Shown piece after piece: positions 885-63,937 of a stretch of DNA of 64,000 nucleotides (position 1 is the first letter of the stretch; every line of letters starts with the position of its first letter). Source of the DNA: Piedraia hortae CBS 480.64. Lineage: Eukaryota. Below the pieces are notes generated by a model. That model worked only from the letters and a program-made list of their open reading frames with translations, was not told where the DNA came from and did not search any database. The DNA lies in NCBI GenBank assembly GCA_010093745.1, contig MU005967.1, positions 124,001 to 188,000 of the forward strand. Direction: 5' to 3'. Made by a program: the position numbers and the translations under genes.

Positions 885-2288
885 ATGCCTCCTCGGTTGC
901 TTTACATTGCATCAAAACCACCAATCTCGATCTCCCAACCACAATGTTGTCTCTACCTCCTCTCAACTACTTCCAAAGGCCCCAAGAACCGCATTTCCAG
1001 ATTTAGAGCCTCACTAGGACCCAGAACGGTGCACTCCGCGAAATTCTCATCCATCACATCCAAACTAAATCCCGGGATATCTCCCAGAAAAAACACCAAT
1101 GCACCACAACCCGGAAAACCCCTCCCCTCAAGAGATGTAGAGGAAGAATACACCCCCAAATCCGCCCTCCTCTACACCACTCACTCTTCATCCCTCCCCC
1201 CCTCCGCAGACGTAAATCCTCCGAGGAGTTTATATCCTCCACCCCTCGTCCTCCCCCGTGAGGGCGGCAGCCGGATCATCCGATTATATGGACTTGGAAG
1301 GGCATACGCGAAATTCTACGTCCTGGGGGTGAAAGCTGTTTGGTTTAATTGGAAGGCTGCGAAGGTTATTAGGGAACGGTTGAGGGGGAAGGGCGGGCCA
1401 AGCGGTAGCAAGCTTAGGGAGAGCAGACGTCAAACGGGACGGGAGGACGGATCCCAAAAAACTCCATCGCTAAAACCCTCCATCAACAGCAAAAGACCCA
1501 ATCAACAAAAAGGGATAAAAGAGACTCCTCACTTTCCTCGCAGCATGGATGTGATGCCCGGCGGATCCCTCCCCCAAAGGTTGAACCTAACCCGCAGCGA
1601 AAACCTCATCCTCACCCTCTCTGCGCGGGATGTGGGTAAACTTCCCCTCTTCGCCCTCCTGGCATTAATATTCGGGGAATGGCTCGCCTTAATTGCGCCC
1701 TTCATAACCGGCCTCGTGCCGTCAACCTGTCTCTTACCCGCACAAATAAACTCCATCCGGGAGAAGAACCGGTTGAGGAGGGTACATGCCTTTAGGGATG
1801 GGGTCGTTGAACCTACGATATCTGTGGGACCTGATGAGGTTGCGGAGGTTGCGGAGCTGAGGGGGCCTGCAGCATCCGATCCTCCGCGGAAAGATTGGGC
1901 GACCACAGAACGCTCGGTTCTGCAAAAGCTGGTTTCGGAGATGAATAGAGAGCAGCTGTATTTTCTGTCACGGGTCCTGGCACTACACGGCCATTCCTGG
2001 GAGAGATGTGGTCTGATCCCGCCGCGTTGGCTTTTGAGGAGGCGGGTTAGTAAGAGATTGTATGAGGTTGGGGTTGATGATTTTTTGATGGTGAGAAGTG
2101 GGGATATAAATTTGTTGGAAGAGAGGGAGGTTGAGGGGGCTTGTGAGGAACGAGGAATTGAATTGGGATATCTGGGGATGTGGGTGGATCTGCAGAGGAG
2201 GGATCGGGGAAGGGGGGGCGCGATGGTGAAGATGTTGTTTAGACGGGGGAGGGTTTGGGGGGATATTGGGATTGAGGGGGAGGGCTAG
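885..2288 (+). CDS. LETM1-like mitochondrial inner-membrane protein
   Basis: Basic Ser/Pro-rich presequence-like N-terminus from ATG 885. Segments GRAYAKFYVLGVKAVW, DVGKLPLFALLALIFGEW, VPSTC and ACEERGI match my recollection of fungal LETM1-like proteins. Start codon uncertain. Confidence 0.65.
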   Translation: MPPRLLYIASKPPISISQPQCCLYLLSTTSKGPKNRISRFRASLGPRTVHSAKFSSITSKLNPGISPRKNTNAPQPGKPLPSRDVEEEYTPKSALLYTTHSSSLPPSADVNPPRSLYPPPLVLPREGGSRIIRLYGLGRAYAKFYVLGVKAVWFNWKAAKVIRERLRGKGGPSGSKLRESRRQTGREDGSQKTPSLKPSINSKRPNQQKGIKETPHFPRSMDVMPGGSLPQRLNLTRSENLILTLSARDVGKLPLFALLALIFGEWLALIAPFITGLVPSTCLLPAQINSIREKNRLRRVHAFRDGVVEPTISVGPDEVAEVAELRGPAASDPPRKDWATTERSVLQKLVSEMNREQLYFLSRVLALHGHSWERCGLIPPRWLLRRRVSKRLYEVGVDDFLMVRSGDINLLEEREVEGACEERGIELGYLGMWVDLQRRDRGRGGAMVKMLFRRGRVWGDIGIEGEG

Positions 2289-2462
2289 GGGTGAGTTAGA
2301 TACTCTGTGGGTTCGACTTTTCGAGGGAGGTTGGTTTGCAAGAGCTGAGAGTGGAATACAATGACTAAAAGGAGAACGCTGGCTGGGATACGGTGAATGC
2401 TGATTGTGAACATAATGGACGCTGACTGGGATACAAGGAAGCCGACTGAATACACGGCTACT

Positions 2463-4025
2463 CTACTTTCTCTCGAGAAGACTGCTCCCGCCCATTTCCT
2501 TGGGTTTATCAATGCCCATTGCATCCAGGACGGTCGGCGCAACATCGCCTAGCACACCATCCTTCTTCTTCAAACTCCACTCTTTAGGCGCATTGGCCAT
2601 GACAAACGGAACAAGATTCGTCGTGTGACTCGTCTTGGGCGTTTTCTCAGGCGTCAGCATTTCCTCGGCGTTGCCGTGATCGGCAGTGATGAAGAGTACG
2701 TAGCCGTGCTTACGACACGCTTCATATACCTTGCCAATAGCGGCGTCGGTCTCCTCGCAAGCCTTTACAGCTGCCTCGTACACTCCCGTATGTCCAACCA
2801 TGTCTGGAGGTGCGAAATTGTTCATGACAAACTCGTACTTCCCTTCTGCAATGCGCTCGCACATGCGATCTGCGACGCCCATGGCGGACATGGTTGGCTG
2901 CTTGTCGTATGTTGCCACCTTGGGCGAAGGGATCATGTCTCGGTCTTCGTTCTTGAACTGGACCTCTCGGCCTCCGTTGAAGAAGAACGTAACATGGGCA
3001 TATTTCTCAGTCTCGGCAATGTGGCACTGGTGGACTCCCTTTTGTGACAGCCAGTCTGCGAGGACATTGTCCATGACCTGCGGAGCGAATGCAATGGGAA
3101 AGTTGTAGTCTGTCTTGTACCGCGTCATGGTGGTGATGGCAAGGTTCTTGGGATAGGGAAAATCGGGCTTGGGTGAGCGGTCTTGGTCTCCAAGCAACTG
3201 GGTGATTTCACGCATACGATCGGAGCGATAATTGAAGCAGAACAAGGTGTCGTTATCATTGATGCGGGCTTCCTTGCCATTGACAATGATGGGTTTCAGA
3301 AACTCGTCTGTTTCGTCCGCATCGTAGCGTTGCTGGACAGTCTTGACTGGATCGTCACTGGCCTCGCCGTCTCCACAAACCATGGCCTTCATGGCCACTT
3401 CGATACGGTCCCAGCGCTTATCGCGGTCCATCGCGTAGTAACGACCGACAATGGTAGCCAACTCGCCAACGCCCTCTTCCTTGCAAAAAGCAAGCAGATC
3501 CTCCAAATGGCCCTTACCACTGTGAGGATCCGTATCACGCCCATCGCCGAAGAAATGGATATACACGTGCGGCACTTTCATCTCCTTGGCCACCTTTAGG
3601 AGGCTCTTGAGGTGGTTAATGTGGGAGTGAACCCCGCCGTCGCTAACCAAGCCCGCCAAATGCAGCCTCCCATCGCCCTCTTTGGCATGATTAAAGCACT
3701 TGACAACGTTTTCCACCTTGTTCATCTCACCCTTCTTGATGGTCTGGTCGATGCGGACAACATCCTGCCAGACAACACGGCCAGCCCCGATATTGAGATG
3801 TCCAACCTCGGAGTTACCCATCAGCCCTTCGGGAAGACCGACGGCGAGCGACGAGGCCTCGAGCTCCGTGTAGCCCTGAGCTGTATCGCTGCCCTTCTTC
3901 GCAAAGCCGTCCATCCAAGGAGTCTTGGCGTTGAGGATCGCGTTGCCATCGGCAGGACTCCGGTCCGAGGGAATCCCCCAGCCGTCGATGCAGATGAGAG
4001 CTACCTTTTGCTGGACTTGAACCAT
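2463..4025 (-). CDS. gpmI: 2,3-bisphosphoglycerate-independent phosphoglycerate mutase
   Basis: Motifs IDGWG, MGNSEVGH (catalytic Ser), DGGVHSH, GRYYAMDRD, AETEKYAHVTFFFNGG, PDMVGHTG and TADHGNAE; intronless 520 aa. Confidence 0.97.
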   Translation of the reverse strand: MVQVQQKVALICIDGWGIPSDRSPADGNAILNAKTPWMDGFAKKGSDTAQGYTELEASSLAVGLPEGLMGNSEVGHLNIGAGRVVWQDVVRIDQTIKKGEMNKVENVVKCFNHAKEGDGRLHLAGLVSDGGVHSHINHLKSLLKVAKEMKVPHVYIHFFGDGRDTDPHSGKGHLEDLLAFCKEEGVGELATIVGRYYAMDRDKRWDRIEVAMKAMVCGDGEASDDPVKTVQQRYDADETDEFLKPIIVNGKEARINDNDTLFCFNYRSDRMREITQLLGDQDRSPKPDFPYPKNLAITTMTRYKTDYNFPIAFAPQVMDNVLADWLSQKGVHQCHIAETEKYAHVTFFFNGGREVQFKNEDRDMIPSPKVATYDKQPTMSAMGVADRMCERIAEGKYEFVMNNFAPPDMVGHTGVYEAAVKACEETDAAIGKVYEACRKHGYVLFITADHGNAEEMLTPEKTPKTSHTTNLVPFVMANAPKEWSLKKKDGVLGDVAPTVLDAMGIDKPKEMGGSSLLERK

Positions 4026-5054: not shown

Positions 5055-5079
5055 TGTAATCTTTCAAATACGGCTTGCT

Positions 5080-6450
5080 TCAGCCAAAATGCTCCCCCCC
5101 AACCAAAGCCTCATCATCCCTCCCCAACTCATCAATCCTCTCACTCAACTCCCCCGCATCCGTAAAAACGTGCCACAAGCGTCTATCAAGCCCACGAAAC
5201 GCCTCCTCAAATCTTTCCTGCTTAACCTTCTCCGCATTCGTACCCACCCTTCGGATGAAAATCGCCCTGATCCAACCAGGAAACCTCCTCGCCGCTTCCC
5301 CGTACGCTTCGGGGTCCGACTGCAACGAATCCCCCACACAGACGAACCTACGATGAGGTAACCACGCGTGGATTTTTACCAACCTGTCGACTTTATACTT
5401 CTCCACACCCTCCTGCAAACTCGCGACCAGCCCTCCTAAATTCTGCCAGCTCGCGTCGCGGAGGATGATCGTTCCTTGGGGGTAATGAGCCCGCTCGAAG
5501 TCGCGGAGGAAGGGGTAGAGAGGGTAGGGTGATGCAGAGAGGTAGAACGTAGCTGGGTTTCTTAAAGTTTTGGAGATGTGTGCGTATAGTTCTGGCATGC
5601 CGGTTACGGGTTCAGGCTCCGCGACGGCGAAGGTGGTGTGGAGGACGGAGACGGGATCGTTGGAACCGGTGACTTTGATGGTATCGTCGATATCGGAAAT
5701 TAGACCCCAGCCGGTTTCGCCAGCGAAGACGGTTGTGCTGGACATGCCGAATGGTGGGGGGAGGTCTAGGGGGGTGGATTGGACGGTTTTGTTGTCGGGT
5801 GGTTGGATGTGTAGCTCGTGGAGTTCGGAGCTGACGCCTGCTAGGGAGGAGGGGCCCAGGGTTTGTTCTTCCATGCTGGCGATGGAGATTCTCAAGGTGC
5901 GATGGGCGAGAATTTTGCTGGCGAAGGGTTCCAGGCGGCTGGCGATGAGTTTTTTGGTGGCAATGTCTTCGCGCCCGATGTTGAGGGCTTTGACTAGTTT
6001 AGCTACTGCTTGGGATAGGTCGTTTTGGCTGTCTTTGACGAAGTAGGCGGCGACGAATTCAACTTCCCAGCCGCTGCCGCCTCGTGTGGGTTTGCCATTG
6101 CTGGTGGGTTGTGTGGTTTGGGGATTAGCTAGTTTGGCTAGGTCGGGGCGGTGGTCTCCTGCTTGGGGGGTGCGGAATGCCGTGTTGTCAAAGATCCAGA
6201 CGTTGTGGAGAGCTGGATCGACGGGTTCTGCTCGGGCCTGGGTTTTTTTAGTTTTAGGTATATTCGTCTCCTGGAATTGTCTTACCCATGGAAGGACGAC
6301 GGGAAAACGATCGAATAGGTCCGGTAGCCACTCCCGCAGATCGTCAGGTACGTCCGGAGAGAATGGCGCATCGTGCTCGATGGAGGCGCCGTTCAGAGCC
6401 TGCACGACTGCTCGGCGACCTTGTTGGAGGACATCGTATAGGAAAGTCAT
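5080..6450 (-). CDS. App1-like phosphatidate phosphatase
   Basis: WGLISDIDDTIK (DxDxT motif), FYLSASPY, VGDSLQSDPEAYGE, IFIRRV. Confidence 0.85.
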   Translation of the reverse strand: MTFLYDVLQQGRRAVVQALNGASIEHDAPFSPDVPDDLREWLPDLFDRFPVVLPWVRQFQETNIPKTKKTQARAEPVDPALHNVWIFDNTAFRTPQAGDHRPDLAKLANPQTTQPTSNGKPTRGGSGWEVEFVAAYFVKDSQNDLSQAVAKLVKALNIGREDIATKKLIASRLEPFASKILAHRTLRISIASMEEQTLGPSSLAGVSSELHELHIQPPDNKTVQSTPLDLPPPFGMSSTTVFAGETGWGLISDIDDTIKVTGSNDPVSVLHTTFAVAEPEPVTGMPELYAHISKTLRNPATFYLSASPYPLYPFLRDFERAHYPQGTIILRDASWQNLGGLVASLQEGVEKYKVDRLVKIHAWLPHRRFVCVGDSLQSDPEAYGEAARRFPGWIRAIFIRRVGTNAEKVKQERFEEAFRGLDRRLWHVFTDAGELSERIDELGRDDEALVGGEHFG

Positions 6451-9275: not shown

Positions 9276-9581
9276 GGAAATAGGGAACGGCCCTAAAATT
9301 AGGACGGTGAGATCTCTGTAGCCAATCAGACGGCGCATACGGCCTCAGATCGGACCCGCCGCGACCCGATCTGGTCTAGCGCAACGTCCACGTCACCGCC
9401 ACGATCGTATCGAGATTCCGCCACGTGCTTCTACAGAGATGGCGCACGTCTGAGAAAAGTTGCGCCCGATTTGTCAACGTTTGAACGCGTGTTAAGGGAG
9501 GGGGGGAGGGGTTGCAGTCTTCTTTCCCTTCAAGCATCTTTAAGTCCCACTTAGACCTTGCATCTTTGCATCTTCGACGCC

Positions 9582-11668
9582 ATGCCCCAGCAACACAAGA
9601 AGCGTGGCAGGCGCATGAAGCGCACTGCATCTGAGCGCGGTGAGGATGCATCTCCTGTCGCCGATGGACACCGCGATGTCAAGCGGCGCAAGTCCAGCAT
9701 CGATCCCCGCTATCTGCCTGACCGAAGGCTCGTTGAATTCGAACAGAATCAAGATGTGGTCCAAGAAGATGAAGCTCCAGAGCAGGAAGTGGCCTTCTTT
9801 GGCCAGCTAGATGCGGATGAGATTGAGTTTTTCCAACGTGCCGACGAGGAGCTGGCTGAAAGCTCATTCGAAAATGACGAGGACAAGCAAGCATACCTGG
9901 AGCGGGTGCACAAAGACATGGAGGGCAAGGAGCTCAAAATTGCACAGAGCCAGTCTTGTTCCCGCTTCATGGAACGCATAATCCAGCTTTCAAACGTTGT
10001 CCAGGTCAAGAGCCTTTTCCAGGCTTTCAGTGAAAAGTAAGTTGACATTGCTCTTGACATGTACAGACTCGTGCTGACGGTAAAAGCTTTGCAAAGTTGG
10101 TCACTCACAGGTCAGCGTCTCACTGCTGCGAGACTTTGTTCCGCCGAGCAAATGACCTCCTAGCCGAGGACGAGGGTGAATCCTCGATAGAACAACTGCT
10201 TGTGACAACAATGGAGGAGTTGGAAAAGAGCATCGGCTATCTCATAACCGACCAATACGCTTCTCATACTTTGAGACTGCTACTGCTGATATTCGCCGGC
10301 GAGTCATTAGACTCCCCCAAGTACATGTCACAGAGCGGTCGAAAGGAACACATGGCGGTAGCAAGATCGAACGGGCCAGAGGCGGAACCCAAGTCCAAAA
10401 CCGTTTCAAAGTCGTTTGATGGGGCATTGGAAAAGCTCCTGGCAACCAGCGCCGCCAGCTTCGACACCCCCAAGCTCCGAGCTCTGGCCACGCATACGCA
10501 CGGAGGCCCAACTCTATCTCTACTGCTTCGCCTGGAGCTGGCTCATTTTGGCAAACAAAGAGGCCGCCAGGAAGATTCCATTCTCCGCAAGCTCCTGCCG
10601 GATGATGCGGCCCAGGCAGAAGACGACAGCGCAACCTTTGTCGGCAGTCTTGTCTACGATCCCATCGGATCGTTCCTCATCGAGGAAATAATCCAACAAG
10701 CGCCCGCCAAAACATTTAAAAGCCTTTACAAGTCCGTCTTCAAGAGTCGATTAGTATCTTGGGCTCGTAACGAAACAGCCGGCTACGTTGTGTGCCGGAT
10801 CCTGGAGCGACTAGGCAAAGACGACCTCCACGAGGCCCATGAAATGCTCATTGGCTCTCTAGCCCAGCTCCTCAACCTCAACCGCGTCATGGTCATTCGC
10901 ACCCTCATCGATCGCTGCATCGCGCGAGAAATCGAGACGCAAGCAATCGCAGCCGCCATCACCGAAGCCATCCAAGGCCCCGACGACACCTTCGACCTAA
11001 ACAGATTTCTCAAATTCAACCAGGAAAGCGCCGAACCCACCCCCGACGTTGTCAAGGTCCACTTCAACCTCCTCGCCCAAGCCATGCTTTTGGCACCTGG
11101 GTCTCTAAATCGGATCATCCTCGACGCACTAAGCCACACGAACAACAAAACCATGCTCGCCATGGCCGCCGACCCCATCGTCAGCCGCACCATCCAAGTC
11201 GCTCTCTCGACCAAACATGCATCCATCATCGAACGCAGAAAACTCATCCAGCACTTTTACGGCCAAATCGGCGAGATGGCTCTTGGGAAATACTCCTCTC
11301 ACGTTGTCGACCGTATCTGGGATGGGACCTACGGTCTCGCATTCATCCGTGAACGAATCGCAGAAGAGATGGCTGAGAACGAGGATGCAATGAGGGATTC
11401 CCCGAGTGGTTCCGCCGTCTGGCATAATTGGAAGATGGATCTTTATCAGAAGAGGAGGAAAGAGTGGCTTGTTCAGAGTAAGAAGCAAGCGGGGAATGAT
11501 GGGTTTCAGTCTTTTTCGGAGATGGAGAAGAAGAAGACTCCCCTGGATTTGGCGAGGGAGAGGAGTGCGAAGAAGAAGGAGGGGGATAACGAGAATAAGA
11601 AGGGGAGGAGGAGGAAGGCTAAATCTGTGGAGACGAAGCAGACGGTGGCTGGTGCGGCTTCTACGTAG
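9582..11668 (+). CDS. NOP9: Nucleolar protein 9 (Pumilio-like repeats); exons 9582-10036, 10087-11668
   Basis: GKELKIAQSQSCSRFME, HRSASHCCETLF, YASHTLR, YSSHVVD, RERIAEEM. A 50-nt GTAAGT...CTGAC...AAG intron joins the two ORFs in frame. Confidence 0.9.
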
Positions 11669-11841
11669 CGTTGATCCATGGTGTTGAAGGTTTTGCATCG
11701 AGTCATCACAGCATTGATTTAACTTCAAAGTATAGGTAAAAATACCTGACAAGTAGCTGTCAAGGCGGCTCCCATCGGCCGAGTCCCCACAGTAAACACG
11801 ATCCACCCAAAATCTTCTACCCACACCCCAAAATCTCCAAC

Positions 11842-13278
11842 ATGTCTTCGATAATAGAAGAAACCACCTCTCTCCTCACCTCCGTCCAATCCTCCATCCT
11901 CTCCTTCATCCAATCCGCCTCCGACCCAAACCCCAAGAGCCTAATCGACCCCCACCCCCCGGCGGAACTAGACTCTCTCCTCAACCTCAACTTCCCCGAC
12001 CACGGTCTTGGAAAACCTGGCTTTCTCGCCCTAATGTCGCACCTCCACCGCTACAGCGTCAACACCTTCCACCAAGGCTTCCTTGATAAGCTCTACTCCT
12101 CCAACAACCCGGTGGGTCTAGCCTCTGACCTCCTCCTCAGCAGCCTAAACACGAATCTGCACGTCTACCAGGTCTCGCCCGCGCTGACTGTGGTCGAGAA
12201 ACGCACCGCGCGGGCGCTAGCGGAGATGTTTGGGTTTAAGGGACAGCATGCCGGAGGGGTGAGTCAACCGGGCGGGAGCGCGGCTAATCAGATGAGTATT
12301 GTTGTGGCGAGGAATGTGCTCTTTCCGGAGACGAAAAGAAAAGGGTTAGGGGGGAGGAGGTTTGTGGTTTTCACGAGTAGACATGGACATTATAGTCTTG
12401 AGAAGGCGGCGCAGATGTTTGGATTTGGGGCTGAGGCGGTCAGGGGGGTTGAGATTGACAAGGGGGGGAGGATGAGAATTGATGTGTTGGAGAGGATGGT
12501 GATTGAGAGCAAGGAGAGCGGGGAGACGCCTTTTTATGTTAATGCGACGGCCGGGACGACGGTGTTGGGGTCATATGATCCCTTGGAGGAAATTGCGGGG
12601 GTTTGTAGGAGACATGGCCTGTGGATGCATGTTGATGCGTCGTGGGGTGGACCGGTGGTTTTTAGTGATAGAGGGAAGGAAAAGTTAAAGGGAGTTGAGC
12701 TGGCGGACTCGCTGACGATTTGTCCGCATAAGATGCTCGGCATTCCGGTTACGTGCTCGTTTTTGTTGAGTAAGGATTTGAGGGAGGTGCATCAGGGTAT
12801 GACTCTCCCGGCGGGGTACCTTTTTCATGAGATGGAGGGGGAGGAGGTTTGGGATCTAGCGGATCTTACGCCGCAGTGTGGAAGACGGGGTGATGCGCTT
12901 AAGCTTGCGCTCGCGTGGATTTATCATGGGTCTGAGGGGTTTGGGAAGGCGGTTGACCAGGCTTTTGATACGGCTGCTTACCTTGCGGAATTGGTGAAGG
13001 CGAGGGAGGGCTTTACGCTGGTTTCACCTGACCCTCCACCGTGTTTGCAGGTGTGTTTCTACTATCGCAAGCGTACGGCACAGGCGGGTTCGGGCTGGCA
13101 GGACTTGAATAGTCGGGCTACCGAGGGGATTTGTAAAGGGCTGGTGTCAAAGGGGTTTATGGTGGATTATGCACCGGGTGAAGATGGTAGGTTTTTAAGA
13201 GTGGTGGTGAATATATTGACTACAAGGGAGACGGTAGAAAGACTGGTGGATGCTGTTGCGGAATGTTGTACAGTCTAG
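11842..13278 (+). CDS. Group II PLP-dependent decarboxylase (glutamate/aspartate/cysteine-sulfinate decarboxylase-like)
   Basis: GFLDKLY, PGGSAAN, HYSLEKAA, ATAGTTVLGSYDP, HVDASWGG, PHKML (PLP lysine), QCGRRGD. Confidence 0.9.
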   Translation: MSSIIEETTSLLTSVQSSILSFIQSASDPNPKSLIDPHPPAELDSLLNLNFPDHGLGKPGFLALMSHLHRYSVNTFHQGFLDKLYSSNNPVGLASDLLLSSLNTNLHVYQVSPALTVVEKRTARALAEMFGFKGQHAGGVSQPGGSAANQMSIVVARNVLFPETKRKGLGGRRFVVFTSRHGHYSLEKAAQMFGFGAEAVRGVEIDKGGRMRIDVLERMVIESKESGETPFYVNATAGTTVLGSYDPLEEIAGVCRRHGLWMHVDASWGGPVVFSDRGKEKLKGVELADSLTICPHKMLGIPVTCSFLLSKDLREVHQGMTLPAGYLFHEMEGEEVWDLADLTPQCGRRGDALKLALAWIYHGSEGFGKAVDQAFDTAAYLAELVKAREGFTLVSPDPPPCLQVCFYYRKRTAQAGSGWQDLNSRATEGICKGLVSKGFMVDYAPGEDGRFLRVVVNILTTRETVERLVDAVAECCTV

Positions 13279-13467
13279 CCTGGATATAGCGGATATGGCA
13301 GATATCTACAGGTGCGTGGAGGCCAGATTTGTGGTGCTGCCCCGCCGTCCAGGTTCGATGGTGGTCGACCCCACCTAACCCCACCACCCCACCTTATCAC
13401 GCTCGTCATCCGACGTCACTCAAACGTCAATCCACCAACAGACTCTTGGCTCTCCAACATCAGCAAG

Positions 13468-29723: not shown

Positions 29724-29804
29724 TGCGTTGTTTTCGAAGTGCCCCGCCAAGACTTTCCTTAGCACCGCACCGTGACATCACACACATACATCAACGCTGT
29801 AGAC

Positions 29805-35298: not shown

Positions 35299-35379
35299 TG
35301 AATTCGGTTTTTGTTCTTTGTTATCATTATCTGTACCTGGTAACCCCTATCCATTCCATCCAATCCCAGGGTATCATCC

Positions 35380-40260: not shown

Positions 40261-40285
40261 TCATATCAAAACCCCCCTCAACTAA

Positions 40286-44323: not shown

Positions 44324-44431
44324 TGNNNNNNNNNNGGTTAGGGGTAGGGATAGGGTAAGACTGGGGGATGGGAAGGGGAGGGGAGTAGGTGGTAGGCAAG
44401 CTTCGCAGGGCGGAGTTGGGGTTCATTGATG
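44230..44431. repeat. About 96-bp near-duplicate flanking a 10-N gap (44326-44335); probable assembly artefact
   Basis: 44230-44325 is repeated with mismatches at 44336-44431. Confidence 0.75.
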
Positions 44432-44569
44432 TGGGGTATAGGAGAATGAGAGGATCCCGGGTTAAGAGGGTTACAGATCGAGAAGGCGAGAGGACGAGGA
44501 TCGAATTAATGGGGAAAAAGGATCGAATGCGAGGTAGATGGATGGACTGAACAAACGAGGACTTCTAAG

Positions 44570-46483
44570 CTACTGTATACCCCTCCAAAGCGCAATCCCA
44601 CAAACAACCCACGCAGGCCACCATAGCGCCCAGATGATGACCGCAGTGTAGACGCCCTGCACTGCCCAGCCCCTCACCACCTCGGTCAAGACCCATTGAA
44701 TACTCTTGTCCATGTACCAGCTCACTGCGTAGGGGAGTAGAGCCGGTGAGATGACGCTATGAATCACCAGACATGTAATGTCTCCCACGCGCCCTGTGCG
44801 GCGATGCAGCATTGCGATAAGACTTAGCGGTGCGCAAACCACGCCAATCCCAAACGCTAAGCTGAAATTCAGCGTTGCGAGGGTCGAAAGCGCCGCGCCC
44901 AGGACGAGGAGGGAAAAGGATTGCATCAGTTGCAGCTGCTGAGGTGTTACCCTGAGACGGAGGAGGATGGATGCTGCGAGGAGGGGGACTGCTAAGCCCA
45001 GTGCTGTTAGGTTATGCTGTAGCGTTTCGAGGTTCTGTGGTTATCAGATTGTGTGATTTTGGGAAGGGGTGGACTCACAGATTTGGGCGTGATGCTGAGG
45101 AGGTAAACGGGCAGGAAGCCGGATAGGGTCACCGCCAAGACGACGGCTGCGGGTAGGAAGATTTCCCTCTCAACGGTTTCAAGTTCCTCTTTGGGGACCA
45201 ATGCCTTATTTTTCCCGTCCTTGATGATTTCTAGTTTGGTGGGTTTCTGAGCTGACTTGCCGCTTTGTAACCACAATGCCAGAGCGGCGATGGTGAAGTT
45301 GCCTGCGATGAGCATCGCCGCGGGAAGGTAATTCCCGATGCTGATGAACCGTCTGGAGTTTAGCAAGATGTAAAAGAAGAAGGACTGGTGAAAGTGTTCG
45401 AGGAGGTTGTTGATGCTGCGGAATATACTCTCCGTTGTTCGACCGAGACTCATTTCGTCCTGCCAACCATCACCGACTGTTTTGAGGGTGATTGCATCAA
45501 CGTGGTAGGGTACGAATGCTGAATGAGGTCCCGTGGCTTGACCGACTGATTGTGTGACGAGACCTCGGACCATTGTTCTGAGACGGTCCGTGTAGCTGTC
45601 TGAATGGGTCTGCATGCCATGCAGGATGCAGTCGATGCCCATCTGGCCGCTGGCGATTTCTATAGCGGTGTTGAGTAGATCTAGGTTCGGCAGGGCACCG
45701 TTGATTCCATCGTAGAGGATATCTAATTTGTCGAAGCGATGGCCCCATGGTCCAGCTGGGTAGTCCAGTGCAACTGCCCCCTGCAGTGCGCCCGCTTTGA
45801 GCGTCAGCGCACTGATGTTGCGATGGTTCGTTGCCTCCAGCGCTGTACTGTGGTACGCAGACGCCCACGCCTCGGGTCCGTGGGTGCTATCAGCCGGGAT
45901 CAAGATGATAATGTCTTTGCTCCAGATCGAGAATCTCTTGAAGAAACGGGCCAGTGTCAAGGCCAGGGCGACCCCAGAGTAGTTGATATCACCGTCAAAA
46001 TTCCGCCAGGCAGCCATCAACACCATGGATTCGGTAGCATCAGCCCTGGGACCCTGCAGCAGACCATAGACGTTCTCCCCCCCGATTACGTCTCCTGCCA
46101 CTGCAAACCGATAATGCTGTCTGGCCACTTTCAATCCCATCTCTTTAATCAGCTCCTCTACTCCCTCAGCTCTCCCGAGGTCATCTTTGTGTGCAAGCTG
46201 GAAGACTTCCTGACGATATGCCCGGAATATGTTGTGCTCGCTGCCTCCAAAGTAGGCGGTAACTTGGCCCGGCAGGATAGCATTCTCAGAGACATATGTG
46301 TGTCTAGAGTACAGGTCCAGAGGCAAGATGAAGAGCCATGCTATCCCAATTACGAGACACAGCGTTGACAGATACGGCGGGAGTTTCAGCAGAACCGGCG
46401 ACGAGCGCAGCAGAAGAAGACGGGAAGCTGCCTCTGGTCAGTCTCCGAGCTTTGGCTTCAACGTGACACGCACTCAGCGGCAT
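44570..46483 (-). CDS. GAA1: GPI transamidase subunit Gaa1; exons 46483-46474, 46427-45079, 45034-44570
   Basis: TYVSENAILPGQV, PRADATES, WSKDII, NGALPNLDL, RSINNLLEHFHQSFFFY and C-terminal TM segments; two GT-AG introns (46 and 44 nt) keep the frame. Confidence 0.92.
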
Positions 46484-49966: not shown

Positions 49967-50034
49967 CTAGTCTCATGAACAGTTTTATTCTCTACATGCC
50001 AGCACGAAAGCGCATTCAGTCCACATCCAACTGC

Positions 50035-51528
50035 CTAGCTGCCAATTTCCCTGACTCCTTTCAAATTCACCACTCCTCCCAAGACCTGCACCGGTGCCTC
50101 TGTAGTCCTCCACCCAGGAACTCGTATCCTATGCTCTCCCTCAGCCTTCTTAACCATAACGCTCCACGGCTCCGGAAACCCTGCTCGTAACGCATCACCA
50201 TCATGTTTCTGCACTCCCGTAATACAAAACTTCCTGTGCCTATGCGCAATAAAGCCCCTCACCAACCCTTGATCAATCAAAGACGCAAGCTTCGACTCAA
50301 CCGCCTCATCCCCTTCCCCATCCATGTCCTCAGCCCCCGCCAACCTAAATGCAACACCCAATTCCTCCAACCCAACCTGCGGCGTAATCTTACTCTCCGG
50401 CGGTGGTCTCGTCCCAACAGCCAACCACGTCCTCCTCACAATACTCCTCCACGCGAGGACCTCACACCGACTCCTCAACTGAAACAAAATCCTAAACCTC
50501 AAAAACCACTGCGCCAGCGGTCCTTTCAAATCCAAATGTCCCCTCAAAGCGCTCACATTCCCCCTCCTAACCGCCTCACAAATCGGCCCAAAATATTCCC
50601 CTAAACCCACACATTCCTCCCTCCCCAACATCTCCCTTGACGGAAACCTCCCCAACAGCAAATTCGCCGTAACAAGATAAACAACAATCAACCTCCTCTG
50701 CTTGGTACACGCCTCATGCGCGGGAGCGGAGCCATACGCGCCCTCCAACGCCCTCGCTGCGTGAATATAATGTCCCGTCTGCAAGTGAAACCTGCCTAGA
50801 TAATACAAAAACGTAACCCTATCGCTTTTCGAATACCCCCGCAACCCCGGCGCGAGGGCGTTGATTTTCTCGAAAATCTGAAATGCGCTGCGCGCTTCCG
50901 TTCGGATGAGGATTCTCAAGCAGATGTTCGCTAAGCGATAGATTGCTCTTTTTTTAGCTTGAGCTGGGGAGAGGCCTGCTTCGCGGGTGGTAAGGCAAGT
51001 CACGACTGCCCCGCGGATGGTATTCGCTGCTTTCTCCGCCAGGGTTTCGCGCTTGGGGTCATCAGGTGGTGCCGGGGGACGGAGTTGGAGGATCAATTCC
51101 GGACGGGCATCGAGTCCGATTGCCAGCCGGGAGAGGAGTTGTGCTGTTGTGATTACTGTAGGGAGGATGAGCCAGCCTTGCGCTTCGTGTGCGAGTGCAA
51201 CGTTGGCGCGGGACTGGAGGTCCAGGAGTAAAGCGTAAGTTGAGAGGTACTCGCTCGCATCCGCGGAGACGTCGCGGAGGTAGTGCAGCCAGGTTTGGAG
51301 GAATTTGAGGAGGGAGGGGTTCGCTTGTGGGACGGTGCGTTCAACTTTTTTGTCGAGGTTGGTGTCGTTGGTGGGGGGGAAGTGAGTGCGCAGCTCCGCG
51401 ATGAGTTGGTTGTAGGTTGGATTGAAGGGGGGCTCGAGGACGAGATACTCGGTTAGGGAGGTGCTGTTGTTGACTGAGATAAAGCCGTTGATGGCAACGA
51501 GGAATTGGCCAAGGAGGGGCGTGCCCAT
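50035..51528 (-). CDS. PCI-domain protein (Csn12/Thp1/PCID2-like)
   Basis: KKRAIYRLAN, RVTFLYYLGRF, NLLLGRFP, LASLIDQGLVRGFIAH, FP. Confidence 0.8.
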   Translation of the reverse strand: MGTPLLGQFLVAINGFISVNNSTSLTEYLVLEPPFNPTYNQLIAELRTHFPPTNDTNLDKKVERTVPQANPSLLKFLQTWLHYLRDVSADASEYLSTYALLLDLQSRANVALAHEAQGWLILPTVITTAQLLSRLAIGLDARPELILQLRPPAPPDDPKRETLAEKAANTIRGAVVTCLTTREAGLSPAQAKKRAIYRLANICLRILIRTEARSAFQIFEKINALAPGLRGYSKSDRVTFLYYLGRFHLQTGHYIHAARALEGAYGSAPAHEACTKQRRLIVVYLVTANLLLGRFPSREMLGREECVGLGEYFGPICEAVRRGNVSALRGHLDLKGPLAQWFLRFRILFQLRSRCEVLAWRSIVRRTWLAVGTRPPPESKITPQVGLEELGVAFRLAGAEDMDGEGDEAVESKLASLIDQGLVRGFIAHRHRKFCITGVQKHDGDALRAGFPEPWSVMVKKAEGEHRIRVPGWRTTEAPVQVLGGVVNLKGVREIGS

Positions 51529-51893
51529 GGTATATACTTTGTTGTGGTGTTTGAGTTATGTCTGTGCCTTGATGTCATGTTGCATTCTTGCGAAAATCCG
51601 CATATCAATTGACTTGGGTTAAGTTTTTGCATGACAGGTGAGTGGTTGGTTGAGGTACAGCTGCTTAGGGTTAGGTTTGACGCGGTCTGGTGTCGTCCTG
51701 GCAGGGATAATATCGGTGGAAAGTGGGGTAGTTGCTTCCAATTAGAGTTCGAGGCGCTACGTTAACCTGTTGATTTTTTCAGTGGAAATTGACTACCCAG
51801 GATGATGACAAAGACCACGCACCTTCTTAAAATGAAAGAACAAACTGGAGCGAACCATGCTAACATCTCCCAAAATTCTTCAATCTTATCAAT

Positions 51894-53312: not shown

Positions 53313-53795
53313 TCTAGTAGCATAGCTCTTGTCTTGATACGCTTTGGCGTTCTATAAGTTTCATTGGTTCCCCGCCAACCAAGTAGACATCTGTATCTCG
53401 AGTCATGAAAGCCACCAGCCAAAAACCCGCTCTTACGCTCTACTTACCATAAGAATGCCAAAGACTCACCTCCGAAAACACTACAAACACTTCACCAACT
53501 TATAGCTATATCGACACCTTAGAAATCCACCACACTCCCCGCCATTGGAAATCAAGCAACAACGATAACCTATATAGTCATCCACCATCCCTCCTACCCA
53601 AGCCAGCCTCCCCATCCCTCCAAAAAAAAAACCCTCCCATCAACCTGACACCGAACAGCACCATCCAACCACGAATACACAATACATCACACCAAGCACA
53701 CAACCACAAACGCACACCAACCCACAACCTCAACCATGCAAAACAAACCACCCCCCACCCCTCCCGTCCAACCTTCTCTCCCAAACACCCACCCC

Positions 53796-54095
53796 CGCCC
53801 TCGCTGCGCCTCCCAAGCCCCCACATCCCGGGCCCTCGTGTCCCACACGCGCCTGATCCACAAATCGTGCCCTCAACAACAGCCCCTCTCCTAAGCGGCT
53901 AATGCAACACTTACCCTCCTCTACTCCCCCACGCAGGCTATGGCCTGTTCTATCTGCGAGTTTGAAACGCACTCTGAATCGGAAGCGGTGCGGCATGTGC
54001 AGGAGCAGCATGGCGAGGGGGTTGGGGGATACGGGTGTACGGAGTGTGAGTTTTTGGGGAATGGGGCGTTGGTGAGGGCGCATGGAAGGTGAGGT
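53796..54095 (+). pseudogene. Degenerate zinc-finger fragment, probable decayed paralogue of the upstream gene
   Basis: One frame reads RPRCASQAPTSRALVSHTRLIH, stop at 53892, then MACSICEFETHSESEAVRHVQEQHGEGVGGYGCTECEFLGNGALVRAHGR and stop. A 35-N gap follows (54127-54161). Confidence 0.6.
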
Positions 54096-55178
54096 GGAGG
54101 GAATGCGTTGGGAGGAGGGGGAGGGGNNNNNNNNNNNNNNNNNNNNNNNNNNNNNNNNNNNGATTGAGGGAGCTTTTGGGATGGGGGATTCTACGGAGGG
54201 GTTTGGTGGGACTTCTTTTGGGATGGGGGGTTTCGTTGATGTTACTGTGGGGCATGGGGGAACTTCTGTTGGGATGGGGAAAACGGGGGGGATGTTTGGG
54301 ATGAAGGAGTTTGGTAATGTTACTAGGGGATTGTGGTACGAGGTTGATGAGCTGATGGAAGTGATGGAAAATATTCAGAGGGAGGACAAGAAGAGGCAGC
54401 ATGTTGAGAGAGTTTGAGCACCGAGAGGCCGGTTAGGAGGGTTAAGGAGGGTGAACAGGGAGGGGAGAGTGATGGATTCGCTGCTGTCGGAGAAGGCGGC
54501 AAGGAAGACAAGGGGGGAAGTGAAGAGGGGATGGATGGAAAAGAAATTGAGCGTGGGGAATGAAGGCTTCAAGGTGAGTTGTTTTAGCGGGTTATTGCAT
54601 CAATCTTTGGTTTCGGGCGGCTGTTTCGCATAGTTGAACAGGTACCTGATAGAGCGAAAGCAATGTTCTACGAGCGAATAGTTGCTCCAAGGCCTACGAA
54701 AAATTTCAGAGTTTTAATTAGGAAGGTTCTTTGTGCGTGTGCCACGGCCCCGCAATTTTCCTACAGGTGGAGAAAGCCTTCCCAGTAGCGCAGCTGACAT
54801 CCTCCAATTAGCTGTCCGCTGGCCAGGAGACGCTACAAAAAGCCTCCGCATCTCTACATCCAGTTTTGAGAGGCTGCAATACGGATGAAAAAAACGTACG
54901 CAAAACCTTTTACGGAGAGACGGTGAAATACACTCGAGCTATACACGCCAAACGACAACAGTGGCGAGGAGTTGCAGCCGTCCAGCAGCGCCGCAAAACT
55001 CGTCCACTGCGCCTTTCTTGAAACAGGCCAATCCCATGCGGGGCGATACCCTGCCGTAACACGAGATGGTGAGAAAGGAAGATGCTGTAAGCCCTCTTAC
55101 ACAAACAGAAAAGACAAAGTCGATGCGCAGATGTTCGTAGTAACTGCATGTCGGGTCGTCACGAGAGCGGCGTCAACA

Positions 55179-57894: not shown

Positions 57895-58100
57895 GTTGTT
57901 GTCGTTGTAGGGATCCTCACATGCCTCGGCTTAGGCGCCACTGGTTTCATCCGACAAAGGCTCTAAAGACATTCATGGACAAGTGAAATCAAAGCAATGC
58001 GGTGAATTCAGGGCAATGCGTGAAGGCAGAGCGTGAAAACAGAACAATGTGTCTCTGTGTGACCTCCCAAATCGGTTAACCAACCTCACCTGCCCAGGTC

Positions 58101-59715
58101 ATGACCAAACAAAACGATTCTCTCAAAGCATCAGCTCAAGGAGCAACATATCTTGTATTACTAACCATCCTCTCGCGAGGCCTAACATTCTCCCTAAACC
58201 AACTCCTCTTAAGATACCTATCCCCATCCCTCCTAGGCATCGCCGTCCAACTAGAACTATACCTCATCTCAACCCTCTACTTCTCCCGTGAAAGCCTCCG
58301 CATAGCTACCCAGAGAAGATCCGATGGCGGGATCCAAGCAGCCATCAACCTCTCCTACCTGGCCATATTGGCCGGGTTTCCCATCGGAGCTCTTCTGGCC
58401 GAAGGCTACTTAAAATCAGCCCCAACAGAGGTCCCATACCTCCACCTCGCCGTGCGAATCACCCATCTAGCCGCTATAATCGAACTCATATCCGAACCAA
58501 GCTTCGTCGCTGTCCAGCAGAACATGCTCTACAAAACCCGAGCTCGAGCCGAAGCATCAGCCGTAGTCGTCAAAACAGCCGTCACTGCAGGAGCAGTTCT
58601 CTTCGGCGTAAGACGAGGTCTGAACTCGGGCGTATTACCCTTTGCACTCGGTGAACTAGCGTATACTGCCACCTTGGCAATGGTATATCTCACTCACACA
58701 AGCATCCACACCCTCCTCCCCAAAAAACTACCCTCAAGGTGCGTAGCACCCTAATTTCCCAAGGCTCATTAACCCCATCCAGCCCCTCAAACCCCTACAT
58801 CTCCCTGCCCCTCCTTACCCTCTCCGCTTCCCTCTACCTCCAAACCGGGCTCAAATACCTCCTCACCGAAGGCGACAAACTGCTAGTCAGCACACTCACC
58901 ACCCTCCCCGAGCAGGGAAAATACGCGCTAGCATCCAACTACGGCGGTCTAATCGCAAGGATGCTCTTCCGTCCTATCGAAGATACTTCACGCAACCTCT
59001 TCGCCCAACTCTGCTCCTCAACAAAAAACACCCCCGAAATCTCCCGCGCAGCAGCCATCCTCCATGATATGTTAAAACTCTACAGCACGTTTTCGCTCAT
59101 CGCTCTCTCTCTGGGTCCGCACGCTGCTCCGCTACTTCTGCATCTAGCTGCGGGGGCGAAATGGTCGTCGTCCGGTGCAGGAGATGTGCTGGCTACGTAC
59201 TCGTATTGTATTCCCCTCATGGCGCTGAATGGGGTTAGTGAGGCTTTCGTTGCTGCTGCTGCTTCGACAAAGGAGTTGAGGACGCAGAGTTTTGCGATGG
59301 CAGGGTTTTCGGTCGTGTTTGCGGTTAGTGCCGTTGTCTTTTTGAGGGTTGGGGAGCTTGGGGCGAGGGGGCTGGTATACGCGAATTGTGTGAATTTGGC
59401 GTTGAGGGTGTGCTTTAATGTTTGGTTTGCGAGGGTTTTTTTTGGGAGGAATGGGGTTGGGTTTGAGGCGGTGGGGTGTTTGCCCAGTGCGAGTGCGGTA
59501 GCAGGCGCGGTTGTTGCTGCTGGGGTTATGGGTAGGTGGGAGGGTGGACTGGGGTTGTTTGGGGAGTTGGGGAAGGTGGGTGGTGTGGGAGTGGGCTTGG
59601 TTGGGTTCGTGTGAGTATCGAATCTGGGACTTTGATGGGGGCTTGACTGATTGTTTGCAGGTTGTTTACGGAGAGGGACTTTTTGAAGAGATGTGTGCAA
59701 CGATTGAGGGGTTGA
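58101..59715 (+). CDS. RFT1: Rft1 lipid-linked oligosaccharide translocation protein; exons 58101-58738, 58783-59610, 59661-59715
   Basis: SRGLTFSLNQ, LYFSRESLR, KYLLTEGDK, YALASNYGGLIARMLFRPIED, ALNGVSEAF; two GT-AG introns (44 and 50 nt). Confidence 0.92.
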
Positions 59716-61716: not shown

Positions 61717-63579
61717 ATGGCCAGACAGACGGCGCTCCAGAATCGCGTGGCTTCGCTCCTTTCGGCCTCGTTTGCCGACTTGGACATTCGTGATGCGCTG
61801 GGCCTTCTGGATGCGCGCGGCGTGTCCAACTCGGCCGACACCCGCCGCCGACTGCGCCTCGACCTGCATGAGGAGCTGATTCAGTGCAACGGCGCTGTCA
61901 TAACCGACTTTGGCGCCGTCGCTGCGCAGCTACGACGTGTTGGAGCCGCCATCGATGGCCTCGGCCGCACCTGGGCCGCTGTTCGAAAGCACGTTGATGC
62001 AGCCAACCGCGAGACTGGGCCGATGTTAGGTGAGGCCGGCACCATCCTTGCCGAGAGAGACCAGGTCCAGACAAAGCGTCGTCTCCTAGACGCTGCCGCC
62101 GCCCACTTTGTCCTCTCCGACGCCGAGCAAGACACCCTCAGCGCCCATGGCATCGACGATGACTTCTTCCGCGTTGTCACCCGCCTCAAGCAAATACATA
62201 CCGACAGCCAGGTCCTACTGGGCGCTGAGAATCAGCGATTGGGCTTAGAGGTGCTGGAACAATCGTCTCGCCAGCTCAACTCGGCCTACCACAAGCTCTA
62301 CCGCTGGTTGAGCCGCGAATTTAAGAACCAGGTGGACCTAGAGAATGCACAGGTCAACGCTGCCATGCGTCGACCTCTCCGCGTCCTGGCTGAGCGGCCA
62401 GCTCTCTTCAATAGCATGCTCGACTCGATTGCCGAGTCTAGGGAAAGTAGCCTATCAACCAGCTTCTACACAGCCCTCACGGGGCCCAAGGCAATCGAAC
62501 TGACGGCCCACGACCCTCTACGCTACGTAAGCGATATGCTAGCCTGGACTCGCTCGGCCACTGTCTCCGAACGCGAAGCTCTTTATGCACTCTTGATCAC
62601 CGACAGCGACCAGCTCGCGGCGGCTCCTGGGCCCACAGAGCCCTGGGTGGAAGCTGAACATTTCAATCCAGACGAAATCCTCCAGAACGTTCTAACAAGG
62701 TCACTGGAAGGCGTATTCCGCCAAGTGCGAACACGCACAGATCAGGTCATTCAGGCCCATCAAGACGCGGTTCTGGCTTACAGCATAGCCAACCTCGTAC
62801 GCTTCTACATGGGCGTGTTCACGCCTCTCCTTGGCTCATCAGACCTCCTCTCAAAAAGCCTCCGTCCCATCATAGAATCTGCCATGCGCACTTTCAAAAG
62901 CGTCATGCTTGATCGGATCCAAGCATGCAGCAACAGCCTCGAAAGCACATCAGCTGATCTCGCTCCTCCAGAATTTCTCTACAATGCTTTGACGCTACTG
63001 AGACGACTCGTTGCCAGCTATGAAACAACGGTAGCCTTACCTAGTCACGACGAGCCTGTGAGAGGGCACGAAGAAGAAGATGGCCTCGAACCGATCCTCA
63101 CTCACGCACTATACCCATCCCTCGACCTTTGTGAAGACATATCGAAACACCTAACCTCGCCAAAGCGAGAAATCTTCCTCCTAAACTGCCTCCTCGCCAC
63201 GCGGGATGCAATCCCTCCACACCTCCTCTCACTCGAGCCCAAAATCTCATCCCTACAAAACCATCTCATCTCCAGCGTCTACGAATTCATGCTCGCAACT
63301 TCCGGGATCGGCGAACTCGTCGACGAACCTGGCGAATATCACAAACAAACCCTTAAGCGCATCGCAGAGAAACTAGACCTCTTCCTCCCCACCGCCTTCG
63401 AGGACGTCAGACTGCTACTCTCCCCCCTGCGCAGCGGAGGCAGAGAAGGCGACGAAGTCATAAGCAACGCAACCGACAAATTCTGCACGACCTTTGAACA
63501 ACTCGAATCCAAACTAACTGACGAAGAAAAAGAAATCTTTCCCCGAACCGGGGACGAGATTCGCGTATTATTAAGCTAG
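61717..63579 (+). CDS. COG6: Conserved oligomeric Golgi complex subunit 6
   Basis: LSASFADLDIRDAL, QRLGLE, LAERPALF, IELTAHDPLRYVSDMLAW, FPRTGDEIRVLLS. Confidence 0.9.
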   Translation: MARQTALQNRVASLLSASFADLDIRDALGLLDARGVSNSADTRRRLRLDLHEELIQCNGAVITDFGAVAAQLRRVGAAIDGLGRTWAAVRKHVDAANRETGPMLGEAGTILAERDQVQTKRRLLDAAAAHFVLSDAEQDTLSAHGIDDDFFRVVTRLKQIHTDSQVLLGAENQRLGLEVLEQSSRQLNSAYHKLYRWLSREFKNQVDLENAQVNAAMRRPLRVLAERPALFNSMLDSIAESRESSLSTSFYTALTGPKAIELTAHDPLRYVSDMLAWTRSATVSEREALYALLITDSDQLAAAPGPTEPWVEAEHFNPDEILQNVLTRSLEGVFRQVRTRTDQVIQAHQDAVLAYSIANLVRFYMGVFTPLLGSSDLLSKSLRPIIESAMRTFKSVMLDRIQACSNSLESTSADLAPPEFLYNALTLLRRLVASYETTVALPSHDEPVRGHEEEDGLEPILTHALYPSLDLCEDISKHLTSPKREIFLLNCLLATRDAIPPHLLSLEPKISSLQNHLISSVYEFMLATSGIGELVDEPGEYHKQTLKRIAEKLDLFLPTAFEDVRLLLSPLRSGGREGDEVISNATDKFCTTFEQLESKLTDEEKEIFPRTGDEIRVLLS

Positions 63580-63604
63580 ACAGTAGAGCAACCCTCCTAA
63601 GTGT

Positions 63605-63937
63605 CTACGTATCACCCGTCTTCTTCCTCTCCCACTCCTCGGGGGTAAAACACTTCGTCGACCAAGCGTGTATCGCCGCGATTTCGTCTTTGAGTTTCGA
63701 ATTAACGAGTCGATGTCTCTGTAAAGCCGTCTTTTTCTCGAATGCATTAGACACAATCGTTACGTTGTACATTTGTCCGCAGCCACCTTGGCACGATAGT
63801 CAGAATGTTTGGACGGCATTGTGGGTGGGTGGGTGGGAAAATGTACCAGAGAGATCGACGACTTCGAGGTGAGAGGGCTGGAGCTCGGTTTCTATCCGAG
63901 AACGGAGCTGGTCTGGCGTGATCGCCATCGCTGCCAT
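63605..63937 (-). CDS. BolA-family protein (BolA2/Fra2-like); exons 63937-63847, 63786-63605
   Basis: Spliced MAAMAITPDQLRSRIETELQPSHLEVVDLSG-GCGQMYNVTIVSNAFEKKTALQRHRLVNSKLKDEIAAIHAWSTKCFTPEEW; 60-nt GTACAT...CTGAC...AAG intron. Confidence 0.9.

Follow-up and report, generated by a model that had tools for sequence, protein, structure and literature searches.

What turns a fungal DNA strand from strongly C-rich to strongly G-rich in the middle of one gene after another? The question is raised by 64,000 bases of the Piedraia hortae CBS 480.64 genome (contig MU005967.1, positions 124,001 to 188,000; hereafter the window, numbered from its first base). A reading made from the letters alone (the sequence-only reading) had described + strand blocks rich in C(A) followed by blocks rich in G(T), and had taken the switch points for fixed, strand-independent sites of a bidirectional process such as replication origins, break resection, recombination hotspots or R-loops. 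Our analysis confirms the blocks, far beyond chance. It leads to a different reading of the flips: they are probably the opposite GC skews that fungal transcription units carry at their two ends, anchored to genes and here unusually strong and step-like, and not origin-like sites.

Compositional blocks and their anchoring to genes

Blocks were called from sliding-window composition profiles and a three-state hidden Markov model (HMM), and switches also from minima of the cumulative skew. The HMM returns 20 C-rich blocks totalling 7,863 bases (about A.27, C.40, G.13, T.20) and 20 G-rich blocks totalling 7,336 bases (about A.20, C.14, G.41, T.26), with block lengths of 81-1,177 bases. These strong blocks cover 23.7% of the 64,000 bases, compared with 0-822 bases (0-1.3%) in five shuffles made inside 2-kb blocks, so that both the description of the blocks and their excess over shuffled controls within the window hold. 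The C-to-G junctions supported by the HMM and the cumulative-skew minima lie at 1257, 1757, 5452, 11269-11428, 12180, 35786, 37374, 40631-40810, 44046, 50848, 53932 and 59144. Twelve of the 13 switch points previously placed by eye fall within about 50 bases of the calls; the last, at 63800, is only a weak G-rich patch that the HMM does not call. The sharpest switch, at 44046 in the gene of an FHA-domain protein, goes from a skew of -0.60 in the left 100 nucleotides (nt) to +0.73 in the right 100 nt. The absolute third-position skew is at least 0.6 in 52 of 256 bins of 50 codons, where 0.4 bins would be expected if third positions were exchangeable. Over the window as a whole there is no net skew (17,078 G vs 16,856 C), and AT skew is opposed to GC skew (r=-0.24 in 200-nt windows).

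Genes are densely packed in this stretch of fungal chromosome. Its 30-odd genes with Pfam-supported products include those for SHMT, iPGM, CCT7, NOP9, a pyridoxal phosphate (PLP)-dependent decarboxylase, PDI, an SPX protein, Rpn9, an RCC1-repeat protein, ThrRS, RFT1, COG5 and COG6. That the host is a fungus is borne out by the decarboxylase, whose closest named homologues, only 54-62% identical, belong to Dothideomycetes of the Teratosphaeriaceae/Mycosphaerellales group and allies, and by spliced RNA contigs with 45-50-nt GT..AG introns. The low identity points to a Dothideomycete that has no close relative among the sequences of the database searched. DNA contigs from one run and RNA-derived contigs from another study have no listed differences from the window; because these independent contigs match the sequence, the skew pattern is not an assembly artefact. 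The RNA-derived contigs skip five stretches of 45-50 nt with ends GT..AG or CT..AC, which supports the gene strands (examples are the 48-nt intron of App1 at 6237-6284 on the - strand and that of NOP9 at 10037-10086), and one of them carries a poly(A) tail at 14589. They are unstranded and fuse neighbouring genes, and were used only for intron and strand support and to confirm the sequence. All statistics given here rest on this one 64-kb window and on 80 metagenome loci of decarboxylase homologues.

On the sense strand, every flipped gene runs C-rich and then G-rich. Five of the ten lie on the + strand (LETM1-like, NOP9, decarboxylase, FHA and RFT1) and five on the - strand (App1, SPX, RCC1, PCI-like and an unnamed gene near 54 kb), and their third-position skew moves from about -0.7 or -0.8 to +0.8 or +0.9. 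The + strand shows the same polarity in + and - genes because C-then-G is its own reverse complement. The strand independence that had been claimed is a symmetry artefact, and the shared polarity is therefore no argument against a link with transcription. Permutation of codons within genes, applied to third-position skew in 32 pieces of open reading frame (ORF), finds a sense C-to-G change point at p<0.01 in 15 pieces and the reverse, G-to-C, in four (CCT7, SPX, Rpn9 and Gaa1). In 28 of 31 genes, sense-strand G exceeds C over the final 150 nt of the coding sequence (CDS), the mean skew being +0.30 (sign test p=4.6e-6). The blocks do not respect the limits of the reading frames: G blocks extend 14 to ~220 nt beyond stop codons, and in three genes (decarboxylase, PCI-like and RFT1) C blocks begin 39-206 nt upstream of the ATG. 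These CDS ends, and the blocks that run past the stops, tie the pattern to transcription units. Within window genes the position of the switch ranges from 0.23 to 0.85 of the CDS, and the 5' part of NOP9, RCC1 and App1 is neutral; the stable feature is a terminal G block of variable length after C-rich sequence.

Four neighbours had been described as free of a flip, which is largely right. PDI and ThrRS have none, and iPGM shows a small terminal rise; CCT7 does not fit the description, as it carries a reversed pattern with a 196-nt sense-G patch near its 5' end (7355-7550; G-to-C change point p=0.001).

The decarboxylase alignment was used to scan metagenomes, which yielded 80 loci from environmental fungi. 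The last 150 nt are G-skewed in all 64 distinct match regions (mean +0.33) and the first 150 nt are C-skewed in 55 of the 64; the former may come in part from a conserved C-terminus rich in Gly, Val and Arg. At third positions, 25 intron-free regions (of 63 tested) have a skew above zero over the last 50 codons in 20 cases and below zero over the first 50 in 22. Nine of these 25 contain strong change points, located at 0.33 of the gene (locus L065), at 0.63 (L014) or at 0.81-0.90, while the decarboxylase of the window switches at 0.23. The flips of L014 (1501-2970) and L065 (1501-3006), at 54% identity, are as strong as that of the window, going in L014 from -0.9 to +0.9. Among the 79 distinct loci 10% of bases are in blocks, and 47 loci have at least one. 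The pattern is widespread in related fungi, with the G block usually at the 3' end. The upstream edge of this block varies between lineages and the switch points are not conserved sites, which disposes of the idea that they are fixed. On the window and orthologue data, relative position within genes essentially explains the pattern, an outcome that the sequence-only reading had itself named as telling against it.

Could the C-to-G switches nevertheless be fixed bidirectional replication origins? Their polarity, C/A-rich on the left and G/T-rich on the right, is that of an origin. The scale is not: there would be 13 switches in 64 kb, with blocks of 0.1-1.2 kb that are bounded by gene ends, not by a terminus, and that are not replicon-scale. 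The window has no net skew, orthologues switch at different places, and the argument from shared polarity is void for a pattern that is symmetric under reverse complementation. Origins are exceedingly unlikely here. Blocks of this kind can mislead skew-based origin prediction, as well as codon-usage statistics and composition-based gene finding, in such fungi.

The arrangement of genes bears on several of the remaining explanations. A strong terminal G block occurs in 9 of 16 genes with a gap of at most 340 nt and in 1 of 12 with larger gaps (Fisher p=0.016, with thresholds chosen post hoc in one window). In all six tight convergent pairs exactly one partner has the block: LETM1-like (facing iPGM), App1 (Med9), SPX (PDI), RCC1 (Rpn9), PCI-like (ThrRS) and the unnamed 54-kb gene (a zinc-finger gene). 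Break resection at the switches themselves fails on sign, as the C-to-G polarity is opposite to the damage of resected 3' tails. A version that places recombination hotspots at intergenic G-to-C junctions has the expected polarity: resected 3' tails would lose C, leaving G-rich sequence on the left and C-rich sequence on the right, and the intragenic C-to-G switches would be the places where tracts from two neighbouring hotspots meet. Blocks of 0.2-1.2 kb are also close to the lengths of meiotic resection in yeast. Such hotspots should act symmetrically, yet the tight convergent pairs are one-sided, with ThrRS, PDI and Rpn9 on the unaffected side; the C-rich block of Rpn9/RCC1 crosses the intergenic gap without a junction; and at least seven of the strongest terminal G blocks face convergent, terminator-only gaps, which in yeast are recombination-cold. 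We consider hotspots very unlikely. The earlier interpretation is partly supported as a whole, and its origin and hotspot part is not supported.

Nature and possible cause of the pressure

At four-fold degenerate sites, neutral regions have the composition A.20 C.34 G.25 T.21, sense-C blocks A.22 C.55 G.11 T.13 and sense-G blocks A.11 C.09 G.53 T.27; these magnitudes are partly circular, the blocks being defined by composition, which is not true of the codon permutation test. The two block types are near mirror images of each other, and the bias at four-fold sites exceeds that at codon positions 1 and 2. The disappearance of skew at synonymous sites had been proposed as a check that would count against a mutational process; the skew is present there and is strongest there, and the strand-asymmetric process at the nucleotide level that had been suggested is the easiest reading. 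Codon choice in two-fold and six-fold families follows the same direction, C blocks favouring NNC/NNA and CTC/TCC/CGC and G blocks NNT/NNG and TTG/AGT/AGG.

The effect is strong enough to rewrite protein composition. From C blocks to G blocks, Gly rises from 3.6 to 12.7% and Val from 3.4 to 10.5%, and Pro falls from 10.9 to 2.8%. Compared with 120 homologues, the decarboxylase has the more extreme value in its N part (-0.25 vs -0.075 +/- 0.076) and in its C part (+0.244 vs 0.123 +/- 0.037) alike, each half of the protein being shifted along the local nucleotide bias. Strong amino-acid differences of this sort, together with the start of the FHA domain at the switch of the FHA gene, speak for selection on proteins or translation, through domain composition or gradients of codon optimality. 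Such selection is hardly credible as the source of the flip: four-fold sites show the greatest skew, which carries on into the untranslated regions (UTRs), and the decarboxylase, whose protein has moved away from its homologues along the nucleotide bias, switches inside one conserved domain, where the silent-site G/C ratio flips about 30-fold. The pressure acts on nucleotides, not on proteins or translational codon choice.

The form of the bias excludes several simple sources. GC content is not lowered in the blocks. The four-fold purine fraction,.45 in neutral DNA, is.64 and.33 in the blocks; this change rejects a pure deamination (transition-only) model, and transversions or selection must therefore contribute. 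G effectively replaces C. No dinucleotide context was found in the window blocks, where ratios are near those of neutral DNA, and with a CpG observed/expected ratio of 0.94-0.97 a context like that of repeat-induced point mutation, or of a CpG-driven deaminase, is rejected. Selection for G clusters or G-quadruplexes (G4) is likewise rejected, the lengths of G runs matching those in shuffles; G4 motifs are mostly inside blocks but follow from base composition. Pairing of the C arm with the G arm into a long hairpin was also tried and rejected, as RNAduplex energies for 250-nt arms are less than 2 standard deviations from shuffled sequence at nine of ten switches, the outlier (z=-4.2) having an N run in its arm.

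Within the gene-anchored reading, transcription-linked strand-asymmetric mutation has about an even chance of being the cause. We infer a mutational origin because the bias is strong at silent and non-coding sites, lacks sequence context, is mirror-symmetric and has a mobile edge, and because strong selection at each site is implausible. In the terminal zone the non-template (sense) strand may be left single-stranded by pausing or R-loops close to the site of termination; the R-loop-type exposure listed among the options of the sequence-only reading is viable. The exposed sense strand would then lose C and A and gain G and T, and the large C-to-G component might come from bypass of abasic sites by Rev1/Pol zeta inserting C opposite the lesion. 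The mirror-image C state upstream would imply exposure of the other strand. Work on budding yeast (PMC6063437) shows Rev1/Pol zeta placing C opposite abasic sites, so that the damaged strand acquires G; when RNase H is lost, T>G mutations become more frequent, specifically on the strand that is not transcribed.

An unlikely elaboration is that there are two self-reinforcing states. G-rich sense sequence would form stable sense R-loops that expose the sense strand, from which C would be lost, through deamination, abasic sites and Rev1 C-insertion, and on which G would be gained; C-rich sense sequence would be maintained in mirror fashion by antisense RNA. A second mode of the third-position skew at +0.6 to +0.8 suggests that the G state is discrete. 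If this feedback operates, it would account for the mirror compositions, for boundaries that are sharp and mobile, for a discrete G state and for its anchoring at termination zones, and the gradient averaged over a species between 5' and 3' ends would be the blur of step functions of individual genes.

A selective alternative is that the terminal G block is favoured as such: G-rich sense RNA would promote R-loops that aid termination by RNA polymerase II where genes are tightly packed, and C-richness upstream would disfavour R-loops in the gene body, in analogy to a proposal for about 2,000 human genes. The post hoc association of strong terminal blocks with short gaps and the single block-bearing partner in every tight convergent pair lend it some support, as does the human terminal GC skew in close genes with R-loops (PMC3787257). 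It would need strong selection at each synonymous site in seemingly ordinary genes that are not highly expressed. G clusters are not in excess of base composition, block length ranges from 180 to 1,177 nt and shifts between orthologues, and the mirror-image C blocks are left unexplained. Selection for termination is in our view quite unlikely.

The junctions bear on another possibility, a single rule that makes every transcript C-rich on its own sense strand over its first few hundred bases, a bias known near transcription starts in plants and fungi. The 3' G blocks would then be the C-rich starts of antisense transcripts, arising from 3' ends or from the bidirectional promoter of a neighbour; G-to-C junctions would mark divergent promoters and C-to-G junctions the meeting points of the two directions. 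Mirror composition, 3' anchoring and variable block length all follow from such a rule. The five G-to-C junctions comprise three between genes, one at the 5' edge of a gene and one inside a gene, so that four of five are where the rule would put them, and the intergenic junction at 44545/44546, where the G block of the FHA gene meets the Gaa1 block, fits a bidirectional start. The rule demands, however, one-directional antisense promoters in convergent gaps of 26-82 nt, where ThrRS, PDI and Rpn9 are without a matching block, and the C blocks of NOP9, RCC1 and App1 begin far from the mRNA start. We consider it quite unlikely too.

Several points weigh against the gene-anchored reading that we favour. 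The evidence base is a single window and a single orthologue family. Ten of the 13 C-to-G junctions lie in CDS, a count that is not significant on its own in a window that is 68% CDS, and junction positions relative to CDS do not separate the models, the numbers being too small. Exceptions to a plain two-part layout include SPX, which opens sense-G-rich, the LETM1-like gene, with a G island in its interior, and CCT7, with its G patch near the 5' end. Rpn9, Gaa1 and COG6 remain C-rich up to the stop, and in NOP9, RCC1 and App1 the C block does not begin at the 5' end. A four-fold G/C ratio of ~6 demands a rate asymmetry far above known nuclear transcription-linked biases. Finally, McLean & Tirosh 2011 (BMC Genomics 12:638, PMC3315797), who described the opposite skews at fungal gene ends, reported a uniform positive AT skew that rises with the GC skew; in the window the two run against each other, with A in excess of T in C blocks and T in excess of A in G blocks (four-fold A/T.22/.13 and.11/.27). 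Uniformity of AT skew is a secondary property in that description, not its definition.

Block-bearing genes and their surroundings

The genes below were named from Pfam matches and their blocks taken from the HMM. The LETM1-like gene (762..2408, CDS 762-2288, + strand) has sense C blocks at 910-1257 and 1451-1621 on either side of its small internal G island (1258-1450), and ends in a G block (2026-2408) that reaches 120 nt past the stop. Its switches are at 1257 and 1757, and its third-position skew goes from -0.8 to +0.9 (permutation p=0.001). The App1 phosphatidate phosphatase gene (5080..6450, - strand) has its sense-G terminal block as + strand C at 5084-5454 and its sense-C body as + strand G at 5455-6264, with the switch at 5452 (in-frame permutation T=8.0, p=0.001). 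NOP9 (9558..11695, + strand) is neutral for its first ~1.25 kb. After this its C block spans 10855-11260, and its terminal G block, which contains the stop at 11668, spans 11428-11695 (T=7.1, p=0.001).

The gene of the PLP-dependent decarboxylase, of the glutamate/aspartate type, occupies 11696..13365 on the + strand (CDS 11842-13278; T=8.5, p=0.001). Its C block (11696-12188) begins 146 nt upstream of the ATG and its G block (12189-13365) is 1,177 nt long and ends 87 nt past the stop; the switch falls at about codon 109-113. Single RNA-derived contigs span 869-4323 (the convergent LETM1-like/iPGM), 4409-6486 (the convergent Med9/App1) and 11554-14024 (NOP9/decarboxylase/epimerase, in tandem). 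RNA coverage is unbroken over the short gaps in these three groups, which does not imply single transcripts.

The interval 18500-22300 contains short ORFs only, three of which follow one another on the + strand at 20937-22081 and point to an intron-rich or degraded gene; C blocks lie in this interval at 19245-19352 and 21069-21642. From 22509 to 35341, a distance of 12.8 kb that includes COG5, a D-serine dehydratase-like gene, PDI and others, there is no block at all, and intergenic spacing is wider (0.3-2.4 kb) than in block-rich parts.

The SPX-domain gene (35342..36885, - strand) has a terminal sense-G block (+ strand C at 35342-35685), a sense-C middle and, exceptionally, a sense-G block over its first ~350 nt (+ strand C at 36534-36828); the C-to-G change has p=0.001 and the G-to-C change p=0.003. 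This G-C-G layout falls within one Pfam domain. Between the SPX start and the stop of an NmrA-like gene, outside any listed CDS and not assigned to a strand, the HMM calls a C block at 37034-37374 abutting a G block at 37375-37719. The pair is either a long (~700-nt) 3' UTR or an unannotated small transcription unit. The RCC1-repeat gene (40250..41785, - strand), which the sequence-only reading had called Fmp25, has a terminal sense-G block (+ strand C at 40250-40631) and a sense-C block (+ strand G at 40810-41378; T=7.1, p=0.001), and the C-richness of the + strand runs on leftward from it into the 3' half of the convergent Rpn9 gene.

The FHA-domain gene (43460..44545, CDS 43460-44323, + strand) has a C block at 43602-44046 and a G block at 44047-44545, seen by both HMM and permutation, the latter block reaching 222 nt past the stop. 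The adjoining 3' end of Gaa1 (44546..45129, - strand) keeps its sense C-richness past its stop (45007) as far as 44906; the sense strand turns G-rich only within what is presumably the 3' UTR (+ strand C at 44546-44725). In the PCI/PSMD3-like gene (50021..51734, CDS 50035-51528, - strand; T=9.1, p=0.001) the terminal sense-G block is + strand C at 50021-50698, and the sense-C block, + strand G at 51042-51734, reaches 206 nt upstream of the ATG. The unnamed gene near 54 kb (53412..54597, - strand) is + strand C at 53412-53935 and + strand G at 53936-54597, with the switch at 53932. Two runs of N, of 10 bases just past the FHA stop (44326-44335) and of 35 bases inside the unnamed gene (54127-54161), sit in G-rich blocks and may be assembly gaps or masked stretches.

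RFT1 (58062..59714, + strand; T=7.3, p=0.001) has its CDS, 58101-59614, in two frames. C blocks at 58062-58539 and 58689-59148 are followed by a G block at 59149-59714 that ends 100 nt past the stop. The frame changes at 58739-58754 (ORFs 58101-58754 and 58739-59614), presumably at a short intron or a frameshift. At the right end of the window, the 3' end of COG6 (63084..63900, + strand) is C-rich up to its stop at 63579, with a C block at 63084-63427, and the weak G-rich patch lies at ~63700-63900.

Comparison with known systems

The skew jumps at replication origins of bacterial chromosomes and in mammalian N-domains (cited in PMC3315797) have the same sign as the switches of the window, C/A-rich to G/T-rich from 5' to 3'. 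They differ in magnitude and in scale, extending over tens to hundreds of kilobases where the blocks here are of kilobase size, and the blocks are anchored to gene ends at positions that move among orthologues.

Fujimori et al. 2005 (PMC555766) described a sense strand rich in C and poor in G close to where transcription units begin, which resembles the C blocks. Theirs is a peak some 100-200 bp wide at the start site, whereas the C blocks here are up to 1.1 kb long, may begin more than 1 kb into the gene and are followed by a mirror-image G block. At the other end of the gene, Ginno et al. 2013 (PMC3787257) reported terminal GC skew in human genes, enriched in closely arranged ones, with R-loops forming there. 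Positive sense skew at 3' ends is common to both systems, and a link with tight gene spacing may be. Theirs is vertebrate sequence of CpG-island type in which R-loops were measured; the fungal blocks reach deep into the CDS.

In a literature search that reached only a minority of subscription journals, no report of step-like intragenic flips in filamentous fungi was found, nor any tying the skew to antisense transcription; few papers citing the 2011 study on the opposite 5' and 3' skew came up, and none of those concerned filamentous fungi.

The closest known system was described by McLean & Tirosh 2011 (PMC3315797). Across 64 fungal species, among them filamentous ascomycetes and two members of the Dothideomycetes, they found GC skews of opposite sign at the two ends of genes: on the coding strand C is favoured over G at the 5' end and G over C at the 3' end, and four-fold sites, UTRs and amino-acid usage are affected. 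They proposed either that mutation follows different regimes during initiation, elongation and termination or that C is avoided under selection linked to the supply of cytidine triphosphate. The window shares with this pattern the C-rich upstream part and the G-rich 3' end, the involvement of four-fold sites and UTRs and the shift in amino acids. Only some genes are significant in either case, a third (33%) of C. albicans genes there and 15 of 32 ORF pieces here. The 2011 study presents averaged, gradual gradients in which the effect at four-fold sites is not above that at other codon positions. In the window, individual genes change in steps within about 100 nt, silent-site skew is near +/-0.8, and G blocks extend up to 1.2 kb. 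Single-gene steps, the larger four-fold effect and the opposed AT skew set the window apart from that description. Here the effect is strong enough for single genes to inform on the cause of the opposite fungal skew, and the organism, together with its environmental relatives L014 and L065, is good material for deciding between mutation and selection.

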